6,931 nucleotides of DNA, taken from IMG/VR virus record IMGVR_UViG_2529293078_000014; one strand, 5' to 3'. Of this stretch, positions 705 through 1,470 are shown in pieces. The position numbers were made by a program, and so were the translations under genes. Source of the DNA: a virus. Lineage: Duplodnaviria > Heunggongvirae > Uroviricota > Caudoviricetes. The first letter of the stretch is position 1, and each line of letters begins with the position of its first letter. The notes beneath the pieces are model-generated. The model was not told the origin of the DNA and searched no databases. It worked only from the letters and a program-made list of their open reading frames with translations.

Positions 705-763
705 AAAAAAGGGCGGCAGAGCAGTTACGGAGTAAAACTGATACCGCCAAATGTCACCAGAAT
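705..763 (-). ncRNA. dicF: DicF small regulatory RNA (about 53 nt) plus U-tract of its intrinsic terminator
   Basis: Reverse complement of 711..763 reads ATTCTGGTGACATTTGGCGGTATCAGTTTTACTCCGTAACTGCTCTGCCGCCC followed by TTTTTT. This matches my recollection of E. coli K-12 DicF at about 50 of 53 positions. Located between the ydfC-like gene and dicB. Confidence 0.75.
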
Positions 764-1098
764 ATTGATAACAGAGGGCGTTGCAGCGGGGTTGTCACTT
801 AAGCGTATGGTCAACCTGACAACCCGGTGTCCTCAACGGGGAAAGAATAACCCCGCCATACTTACCGCCGCGCCATTTCGCGGATTGCCACAACCGGAAG
901 CGCACGGTCGAATTAAATTTAACGACGGCTCTAAGGGAGAAGGACTTCGCCGTGCACTTTCGTGTTATGCCCTGACTTTTCAGGGATATATCCTTTCAGT
1001 AAACTGTCAGTGCCGGATTCTTATCTGTGTCCGGCGCACGACCACACGTAGCAGCGTGTTGGTCTCCATTTTTAATTCAGCCCTTAATGGAGGATAAA

Positions 1099-1284
1099 AT
1101 GCCAAACAAACCATGCCCTGCCTGTAACGCTCTTTCTGGCTTTTTAGAGAAGGGCGGTTATTACATTTTTAACTGTCCAGAACATGTTGAATTTCATATA
1201 TCAAAACTTGACAGTATCATTACAAAGCCAAATCAGTATCAGTCTGATTTACTGAATAAAGAGTTAAACGCCGCCCGAGATTAA
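1099..1284 (+). CDS. Small hypothetical protein (61 aa) with a CxxC...CxxH motif (putative zinc ribbon), convergent with the dicB operon
   Basis: ATG at 1099 preceded by GGAGGA (1089..1094); translation MPNKPCPACNALSGFLEKGGYYIFNCPEHVEFHISKLDSIITKPNQYQSDLLNKELNAARD has CPAC and CPEH pairs. The track ORF beginning at 1027 is probably an over-extension. A weak hairpin GGGC-N6-GCCC (1285..1298) follows the stop. Confidence 0.4.
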   Translation: MPNKPCPACNALSGFLEKGGYYIFNCPEHVEFHISKLDSIITKPNQYQSDLLNKELNAARD

Positions 1285-1470
1285 GGGCGTAGTGGCCCAT
1301 TAAAAATATTGCAAAGACCAACTATTGTTGAACTGGATTAAACCAGTAATTCTCTATTGCTCTTATTGTTACCATCGGATGATTGCCGGGGGTTATTTTA
1401 AGTTCGGGAGGAAAAGGCTCTCCATCAGCAGCCATCATTGAGTATGTGAAATCCGCCGACGCAGTCCCTT

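Follow-up and report, generated by a model that had tools for sequence, protein, structure and literature searches.

The sieB gene of Rac, lambda and P22 is a superinfection exclusion gene that is transcribed against the early-left operon. It is expressed from the prophage, and the antidote to it, Esc, is itself an internal sieB product; no conserved partner domain is known for sieB at the DNA level. The gene order around it in Rac is racR, ydaG, ydaF (DUF1391), the convergent sieB (with a 4-bp overlap), the small RNA (sRNA) kilS, the division inhibitor kilR and the exonuclease recE. In the Qin prophage of Escherichia coli K-12, the 53-nt sRNA DicF is excised by RNase E from the polycistronic RNA of the dicB operon, and a DicF species of 190 nt is an RNase III product; an internal promoter was not found (Faubladier 1990, as cited in Ragunathan et al. 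2023, PMC10448788). Here we analyze a stretch of 6,931 nucleotides from a virus of the Caudoviricetes (IMG/VR record IMGVR_UViG_2529293078_000014; the window, with positions counted from its first letter), which is identical in sequence to prophage Sp4 of E. coli O157:H7 Sakai and to CP-933M of EDL933. Our subject is the region between dicF and the next large gene of the operon (763–1321) together with the two genes ECs1061 and ECs1063, which lie in a slot like that of sieB in Rac. The overall explanation that we favor, with a confidence that is about evenly balanced, is that a DicF leader is followed by a convergent cassette that replaces ydfC, and that this cassette carries a cognate antagonist pair that is decaying in O157.

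The initial annotation read 763–1321 as about 560 bp of extra DNA between a ydfC-like gene and dicF, on the premise that in K-12 dicF comes closely after ydfC. The distance from the end of ydfC to dicF in K-12 MG1655 is 340 bp. Using blastn, we found homology of the window to K-12 Qin only in 1–1040 (84% identity, collinear) and in 1874–2194. The non-K-12 DNA within 763–1321 is limited to 1041–1321, and ~280 of the 559 bp are ordinary; whether the spacer is conserved ydfC-dicF sequence is answered yes for 763–1040 and no for 1041–1321. Phage Tritos is collinear with the window at 91% identity, with a breakpoint at ~1040–1043, the same as with K-12. A simple insertion was rejected because the module at 1041–1873 (833 bp) stands in place of a 310-bp segment in K-12 Qin (ydfC plus ~60 bp). 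We also rejected a foreign origin by base composition, as the GC content of 38–41% equals that of the neighboring dicB and ydfD genes. The small gene is missing from the same site in K-12 Qin and in Tritos, and this site is that of the ydfC replacement. As the initial annotation had said, there is no sizeable minus-strand open reading frame (ORF) within 763–1321 (none exceeds 36 aa). The flanking gene that it called ydfC-like was rejected as such: BLASTP against K-12 YdfC gave E=0.4, and ECs1063 matches phrog_1363 (E=1e-50), whereas the YdfC of Tritos belongs to phrog_1744.

ECs1061 (1099–1284, plus strand; WP_001133046.1, a hypothetical protein in RefSeq) is a real gene; the 61-aa ORF that the initial annotation described is a truncated allele of an 80-aa gene. 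The product matches phrog_10133 (E=7e-48). Both sequence signals first noticed are present. The Shine-Dalgarno (SD) sequence GGAGGA (1089–1094, plus strand) lies 4 nt before the ATG and is invariant in alignment A7, and an SD sequence 4 bp upstream of ECs1061 was also predicted with a dG of -6.3 (PMC5597208 S4 Table). The CxxC/CxxH pairs take the form CPAC/CPEH (C6/C9 and C26/H29), and these four residues are invariant in five sequences, down to a 48%-identical homologue. By its two ligand pairs ~15–20 residues apart, the small protein is zinc-ribbon-like. No curated zinc-ribbon family in Pfam or NCBIfam matched it, a PDB sequence profile search aligned it with a ZNF domain at E=0.055, and the best Foldseek match in the PDB was a small zinc-finger protein at E=0.99, with nothing below E=0.9. 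An AlphaFold2 (AF2) model of modest confidence (predicted local distance difference test score, pLDDT, of 65.9) has strands at 3–5, 12–18, 21–25 and 32–35, then a helix at 46–60, which suggests a predicted fold with the Cys/His pairs on beta-hairpins plus a C-terminal helix. We rejected homology to YdaE, the small Zn-binding protein of Rac.

The coding status of the small gene was assessed from its alleles. The ratio of nonsynonymous to synonymous substitution rates (dN/dS, Nei-Gojobori) is 0.15–0.18 in frame, and no in-frame stop occurs; in four of five control frames the ratio is ~1.0, and the other frames contain 2–7 stops. Even codons 63–80, which lie beyond the O157 stop, have a dN/dS of 0.16–0.22 among the intact alleles. 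The substitution pattern shows the family to be a coding gene under purifying selection. In addition, the 80-aa convergent ORF was called independently as a gene in many contigs. Diverged copies occur in E. coli A19 (92% DNA identity), ETEC4079 (72%), six IMG/VR contigs and Salmonella. The family is nevertheless tiny by protein searches: an exhaustive phmmer search of 1.84 billion representatives returned four matches, namely P0005, which is a genuine distant relative, one fragment, and two (P0003 and P0004) that were rejected as repeat-protein artefacts. A word-indexed homology search with the 61-aa protein found two near-identical clusters only, a scan of the GTDB species representatives found no small-gene locus, and tblastn found no match in the INPHARED phages. 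A full-text literature search found neither ECs1061 nor ECs1063 named in the text of any paper.

Published strand-specific RNA-seq and ribosome profiling (Ribo-seq) of uninduced Sakai show that truncated ECs1061 still has RNA and bound ribosomes in the lysogen, both at a low level. In lysogeny broth (LB), the RNA value is 12.2 reads per kilobase per million mapped reads (RPKM) and the footprint value 68.2 RPKM, with a ribosomal coverage value (RCV) of 5.6 and a coverage of 0.51; in brain-heart infusion (BHI), the corresponding values are 33.8 RPKM, 30.8 RPKM and an RCV of 1.0 (Hücker et al. 2017, PMC5597208 S2 Table). These values clear the authors' thresholds for translation (PMC5597208). Plus-strand RNA and conservation, the two points on which the initial annotation had made the ORF depend, were thus both found, as RNA-seq and Ribo-seq signal and as conserved relatives.

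All non-O157 alleles of the small gene encode 80 aa. Codon 62 is TCA (Ser62) in L109, the nearest of the intact alleles, with ~99% identity across the central 650 bp; the O157 sequence has A instead of C at 1283, creating a premature TAA stop at 1282–1284 (plus strand). The former 3' coding part (1285–1341, plus strand) consists of 18 codons (GRSGPLKILQRPTIVELD) plus a TAA at 1339–1341; it is untranslated in O157 and overlaps the 3' end of the partner gene by 20 bp. Within the ORF, O157 and L109 differ by one nonsense and two missense changes and by no synonymous change, which fits relaxed constraint on the O157 allele.

The partner gene on the minus strand (1322–1860) is frameshifted. When translated in three frames and aligned to L004 and L109, ECs1063 (129 aa, 1471–1860) and a 50-aa ORF (1322–1474) proved to be two frames of one gene; the ORF that ends at 1322, on which the ydfC-like label had been placed, is the out-of-frame 3' remnant of a 179-aa gene. 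The frameshift site is a run of seven nucleotides at 1591–1597 (T7 on the plus strand, A7 on the minus strand) against eight in intact alleles. Comparison with intact alleles shows one single-nucleotide lesion in each O157 gene: the nonsense change at 1283 and the -1 frameshift at 1591–1597. In other E. coli and in Salmonella the intact partner has 179–186 aa (family alignment A5), with a conserved N-domain of ~60 aa (MEFKDL...) and a C-terminal domain of ~100 aa that is specific to the cassette type (here type 1, see below). Where both genes are intact they converge, with 3' ends that overlap by 20–44 bp. At this overlap lies a palindromic hairpin, ACTGG-ATTAAA-CCAGT (1332–1347), which folds on both strands and has a terminator-like match on the plus strand; it is a candidate weak bidirectional terminator or processing site.

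To what extent do the two genes belong together? Among 13 distinct type-1 allele pairs, both genes are intact in 11 and both are broken in two (the O157 lineage), and no pair is mixed. In the same 13 pairs, subtypes of the zinc-ribbon ORF track subtypes of the partner C-terminal domain, with independent recombination of the N-domain. The homologue with 48% identity, P0005 (91 aa), belongs to another lambdoid early-left region, one that has no DicF; there it is convergent with a 135-aa gene over an overlap of 119 bp. This 135-aa gene is homologous only to the C-terminal domain of the partner (hhalign 96.6%, E=6e-10, 30% identity over 100 columns) and has no N-domain. In a second kind of cassette (type 2), as found in Salmonella, the C-terminal domain (79% identity) still abuts a 69-aa ORF (77%), and the N-domain is a separate gene on the other side. 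Because of the states of the allele pairs, the P0005 locus, the Salmonella type-2 pair and the substitution pattern in O157, the pairing of ECs1061 with its partner is probably more than linkage.

We surveyed the cassettes in 80 IMG/VR loci that were retrieved by the N-terminal ~60 aa of the partner and compared with the window and with L003–L006. There are at least four unrelated cassettes between the N-domain and the DicF leader. Each combines a distinct C-terminal domain, encoded on the operon strand, with a distinct small convergent ORF that has an SD sequence beside the leader. Type 1 combines a 126-aa C-terminus with the convergent zinc-ribbon ORF, type 2 a 152-aa C-terminus with a convergent 69-aa ORF (the 69-aa/212-aa pair), type 3 a 62-aa C-terminus with a convergent 100-aa ORF, and type 4 a 52-aa C-terminus with a convergent 64-aa ORF (the 64-aa/112-aa pair). 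The type-2 genes abut without overlap. The type-3 ORF belongs to the YmfI family (56% to YmfI), and its partner matches YmfJ (47%) in the C-terminus only. For the proteins of types 1, 2 and 4 we found no match in PADLOC, NCBIfam, Pfam or the PDB sequence profiles, and YmfI for type 3 was the sole useful match.

Two type-2-like loci (L082:3173–3231 and L098:3173–3231) carry a hairpin/SD block that is 98% identical to that of the window, 37 bp after a 211-aa gene, and ~670 bp of extra DNA between this block and the DicF leader; the layout suggests yet another cassette arrangement. In L105:3869–4984 and L112:3843–4896, isrK (RF01394), a C4 antisense RNA (RF01695) and a Phage_ASH/pRha antirepressor gene come after the type-1 cassette and before KilR or DicB. 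The isrK/C4/antirepressor element is an immunity element in the style of P1/P7 or Gifsy, which is inserted in the early-left operon of some Salmonella and E. coli prophages.

The module begins with a conserved 5' block. Hairpin 2 and a U-rich tract, TCCATTTTTAATT (1040–1077 on the plus strand, hairpin at 1040–1064), mark the start of the part that is associated with the cassettes, and 751 E. coli genomes carry at least this 1040–1077 part of the module. Together with hairpin 1 (1012–1035), the GGAGGA and the ATG they form a block of ~90 nt that is nearly invariant in cassette types 1–3 and in Salmonella. In Salmonella L105 the block is kept from hairpin 2 onward although the DNA upstream differs. 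The block does not extend to the distant module of L116. Because this ~90-nt block is shared across cassettes, we place the recombination joints within the 5' ends of both convergent genes. Hairpin 2 folds better than shuffled sequences on the plus strand (z=-3.9) and not on the minus strand (z=-0.04), and with its U-tract it looks like a candidate terminator or 5'-untranslated-region element for the plus strand only. The two hairpins that the initial annotation had listed, at 970–985 and 1040–1064, are real and beat shuffled sequences on the plus strand (z ~-3.8). Visual inspection of hairpin 2 shows a weak -35 (GTAGCA, which is GTGACA elsewhere) and a weak -10 (TTTAAT, which is TTTAAC elsewhere among the alleles), on which we do not rely. 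BPROM predicted a promoter 122 bp upstream of ECs1061 (PMC5597208).

The other half of the supposed spacer belongs to DicF. The sRNA itself (711–762, minus strand) is a full-length match to Rfam RF00039 (76.9 bits, E=3e-16), and 763–1040 on the same strand is homologous to the ydfC-dicF intergenic region of K-12 Qin, collinear with it and in the same position relative to DicF. Some part of this leader was found in 4316 of 5426 complete E. coli genomes, and its minus-strand fold is stabler than shuffled controls (z=-3.46). RNAalifold on 31 distinct loci predicted a long imperfect helix on the minus strand, with arms at 889–911 and 947–969 and an apical loop at 912–946. Its ~20 pairs are almost invariant, with changes that are only G-U or one-sided, and the apical loop has many substitutions and indels across the loci. 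The 5' end of the 190-nt species, when placed from the K-12 data, is predicted at ~899–900, within the 3' arm of the helix. Given the processing in K-12, the conserved helix with its variable loop and the position of this 5' end, we read 763–1040 as a leader in which the helix is a probable RNase III substrate that gives the 190-nt DicF species. The alignments show 763–1040 to be the ordinary, conserved and structured leader of the DicF precursor and not extra DNA. From the K-12 leader that of the window differs in the sequence of the apical loop, as many prophages do, and in nothing else that is essential; the processing is known for K-12 only. A long region 5' of dicF is normal and serves as the processing substrate, and ECs1061 should not be read as a regulator of DicF. 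Two further hairpins belong here: CCCTGA-CTTT-TCAGGG (970–985, -9.4 kcal/mol, z=-3.8), which lies within the leader and is kept in most loci, and hairpin 1 (GCCGGAT...GTCCGGC, -13.7 kcal/mol, z=-4.1), the stem of which is invariant in alignments A7 and A8 and which is the last element that the window shares with ydfC-type prophages.

An older annotation of EDL933 placed a plus-strand gene, RS06110 (101 aa, 792–1097), over the DicF leader; the current RefSeq has dropped it. The Prokaryotic Genome Annotation Pipeline (PGAP) lengthens the small gene of ETEC4079 upstream through the RS06110 frame, to 135 aa. As this frame overlaps the conserved RNA leader and the leader loop contains non-triplet indels, it is almost certainly spurious. 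The body of DicF is polymorphic among related prophages (L003:1164–1260, L004:1164–1260, also L030, L031, L094 and L104; L006 and L022; L052, L072 and L099). In several loci a ~45-nt element with a new 5' region and a new terminator hairpin, which Rfam does not call, stands in place of the 53-nt DicF, and leader, downstream sequence and dicB are retained. In other loci DicF is shortened or has a different 5' (seed) region. Such elements at the position of DicF may be allelic sRNAs with other targets. In EDL933, Cappable-seq assigned a minus-strand transcription start site (TSS) to 763, the exact 5' end of DicF, in one condition (PMC10469882); it is probably a processed end.

Several observations weigh against the explanation by a cognate pair. 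Neither protein has a significant family, defense or fold match in Pfam, NCBIfam, PADLOC or the PDB sequence search, nor does the small protein have one by Foldseek, and the AF2 models help little (pLDDT 66 for the small protein and 47 for the partner, the latter unusable). Interaction, toxicity or protection by the pair is something that we infer only, and co-inheritance could largely be explained by overlapping or abutting 3' ends together with recombination in the flanking conserved sequences. The state in which both genes are broken is a single event in one lineage; L119 is a second such case, but it is a short metagenome contig with possible errors. A sigma-70 consensus scan upstream of the small gene found no promoter, and no plus-strand TSS for ECs1061 is among the entries listed from EDL933 Cappable-seq (PMC10469882), which is a weak negative. 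Finally, expression of ECs1061 is low (RNA RPKM 12–34), like that of the leaky dicB operon.

The main rival explanation is that an independent lysogenic-conversion gene (moron) sits in the sieB slot and that its small protein acts alone, in superinfection exclusion, anti-defense or host modulation; its link to the C-terminal domain of the partner would then arise only from the touching 3' ends and from breakpoints in the flanking conserved sequences. We consider this possible but doubtful. A moron would have the position and orientation of sieB in Rac, would be translated in the uninduced lysogen as ECs1061 is, and would be missing from some relatives, as from K-12 Qin and Tritos; several unrelated genes in one slot are also what an accessory-gene hot spot would have. 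Linkage of this kind sits less well with a pair that is kept at 48%/30% protein identity in another context without the N-domain, with the Salmonella type-2 pair that is kept after a rearrangement splitting off the N-domain, with type-2 genes that merely abut and are separable yet stay together, and with the lack of mixed intact/broken states in 13 allele pairs, and the small protein has no homology to SieB or to any defense family. The inserted moron that the initial annotation had proposed therefore survives in part: the small gene is an accessory gene, translated at a low level and missing from K-12 Qin and Tritos, but it came with a replacement of ydfC and is half of a convergent gene pair. 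The idea that the ORF is a chance or dead frame in all genomes and the region a non-coding spacer is very improbable and, for the family, essentially refuted. The O157 allele is indeed truncated, the family tiny and free of Pfam or structural matches, but a dN/dS of 0.15–0.18 without stops, against ~1 and 2–7 stops in the other frames, metal-ligand residues conserved to 48% identity, ribosome footprints and PHROG membership all speak for a gene.

The initial annotation also offered a role in the control of DicF and DicB, and it was correct that transcription of the ORF, which lies upstream of dicF and dicB, runs head-on into the dicB operon, which DicA represses. A plus-strand unit that mainly controls DicF/DicB by transcriptional interference, or by antisense pairing with the dicB operon transcript, is nonetheless unlikely, and it is the least supported among the cognate-pair, moron and interference models. 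There is no strong terminator between the convergent genes, the 5' block (hairpins and SD) beside the DicF leader is highly conserved, and antisense transcription of the operon does occur: in EDL933, Cappable-seq mapped robust plus-strand antisense TSSs to 1723, inside the 129-aa gene, in all eight conditions, and to 1865 in six, as well as a plus-strand TSS to 346, antisense to dicB/ydfD, in four (PMC10469882). Yet selection acts on the amino-acid sequence of the small protein, the pair also lies upstream of isrK/C4/antirepressor/KilR (Salmonella L105) or in a module without DicF (L116), and ydfC-type prophages, including K-12, control dicBF without the small gene. The plus-strand expression is low, and the Cappable-seq entries listed hold no TSS for the gene. 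With the protein under selection, the pair present elsewhere without DicF/DicB and no TSS listed, interference as the purpose of the gene was set aside; as a side effect of transcription of the small gene it is possible.

Returning to the cognate pair, the two proteins would act on each other, and the convergent layout would impose reciprocal expression. The small protein would be made from the repressed prophage, and the partner only when the DicA/CI-repressed early-left operon fires; the small gene would then be silenced too, by head-on transcription and by antisense pairing along the shared 3' ends. The small protein might then be a neutralizer, made by the lysogen, of an early protein that is toxic to the host. 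Alternatively, it might be an exclusion factor made by the lysogen, with the partner as an escape protein made by the phage, as in SieB/Esc. The module in Sp4/CP-933M is most likely inactive and decaying. More tentatively, and with less confidence than in the pair itself, we propose that in lambdoid prophages the sieB slot, flanked by the genes near the repressor and by those for the sRNA and the division inhibitor, holds a polymorphic set of interchangeable convergent antagonist pairs, with an effector on one strand and an antidote on the other, as a lysogeny-versus-lytic switch; ECs1061/ECs1063, the 69-aa/212-aa pair, the 64-aa/112-aa pair and YmfI/YmfJ might be four members of an unrecognized class of prophage exclusion or host-takeover safety modules.

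Compared with described systems, ECs1061 has the orientation of sieB and, by Ribo-seq, is likewise expressed from the prophage. We found no homology to SieB (BLASTP against Rac SieB gave E=0.059 over 17 residues, with no match to the SieB family of Pfam), and SieB has 162 aa whereas the ECs1061 family has 80 aa with a Cys/His motif. The YmfI/YmfJ genes of e14 in K-12 have a like architecture, a small plus-strand gene convergent with an operon-strand gene over a 63-bp overlap and just downstream of the repressor, but they belong to protein families other than those of ECs1061 and ECs1063. As in type II toxin-antitoxin systems, two small cognate genes are carried jointly by mobile elements and are prone to loss as a pair; toxin-antitoxin genes, however, are co-directional and co-transcribed, and ECs1061 and ECs1063 are convergent. 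No known toxin or antitoxin family in Pfam, NCBIfam or PADLOC matches the pair, and PHROG 10133 (ECs1061) and PHROG 1363 (ECs1063) record neither a function nor a pairing. The hypothetical protein ECs1061 can now be placed as half of a conserved convergent pair in a sieB slot that has at least three unrelated sister cassettes. As a candidate that can be put to the test, the pair may represent a new type of prophage accessory module, based either on exclusion and escape or on a toxic early protein and its neutralizer. The O157:H7 copies, which are the likeliest to be studied, are double mutants; intact alleles exist in enterotoxigenic E. coli (ETEC), with the ETEC4079 pair at NZ_CP122643.1 2858803–2859727, in bat-derived E. 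coli and in Salmonella.

The remaining genes of the window frame this region. To the left of DicF on the minus strand lie dicB (337–525) and a DUF1482/ydfD-like gene (149–340). To the right of ECs1063, also on the minus strand, ydfB and ydfA (DUF1391) form the start of the dicB operon, and a RelE/ParE-RelB toxin-antitoxin pair (2435–2913, minus strand) lies between them and a CI-like repressor on the same strand. The RelE/RelB pair has no counterpart at the same position in K-12 Qin. The cro-like, ydaT-like and replication genes to the right of the repressor are on the plus strand. Upstream of ydfA, the region 2344–2416 contains a palindrome of 28–40 nt, AAAAACTGTT...AACAGTTTTT (2350–2377), which is unique and arose in 0 of 200 shuffles, and an adjoining terminator-like hairpin on the minus strand (2401–2416). 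A motif that resembles this palindrome, ACAGTTTTTTATTGT, occurs in the intergenic region between the repressor and cro (~3380–3415). These palindrome, hairpin and motif sequences are probably operator or terminator elements of the control region of the dicB operon. Further to the right, a low-complexity EQEQEQEKEQEQ stretch (5340–5400, plus strand) lies within a 400-aa protein that resembles a replication organizer.

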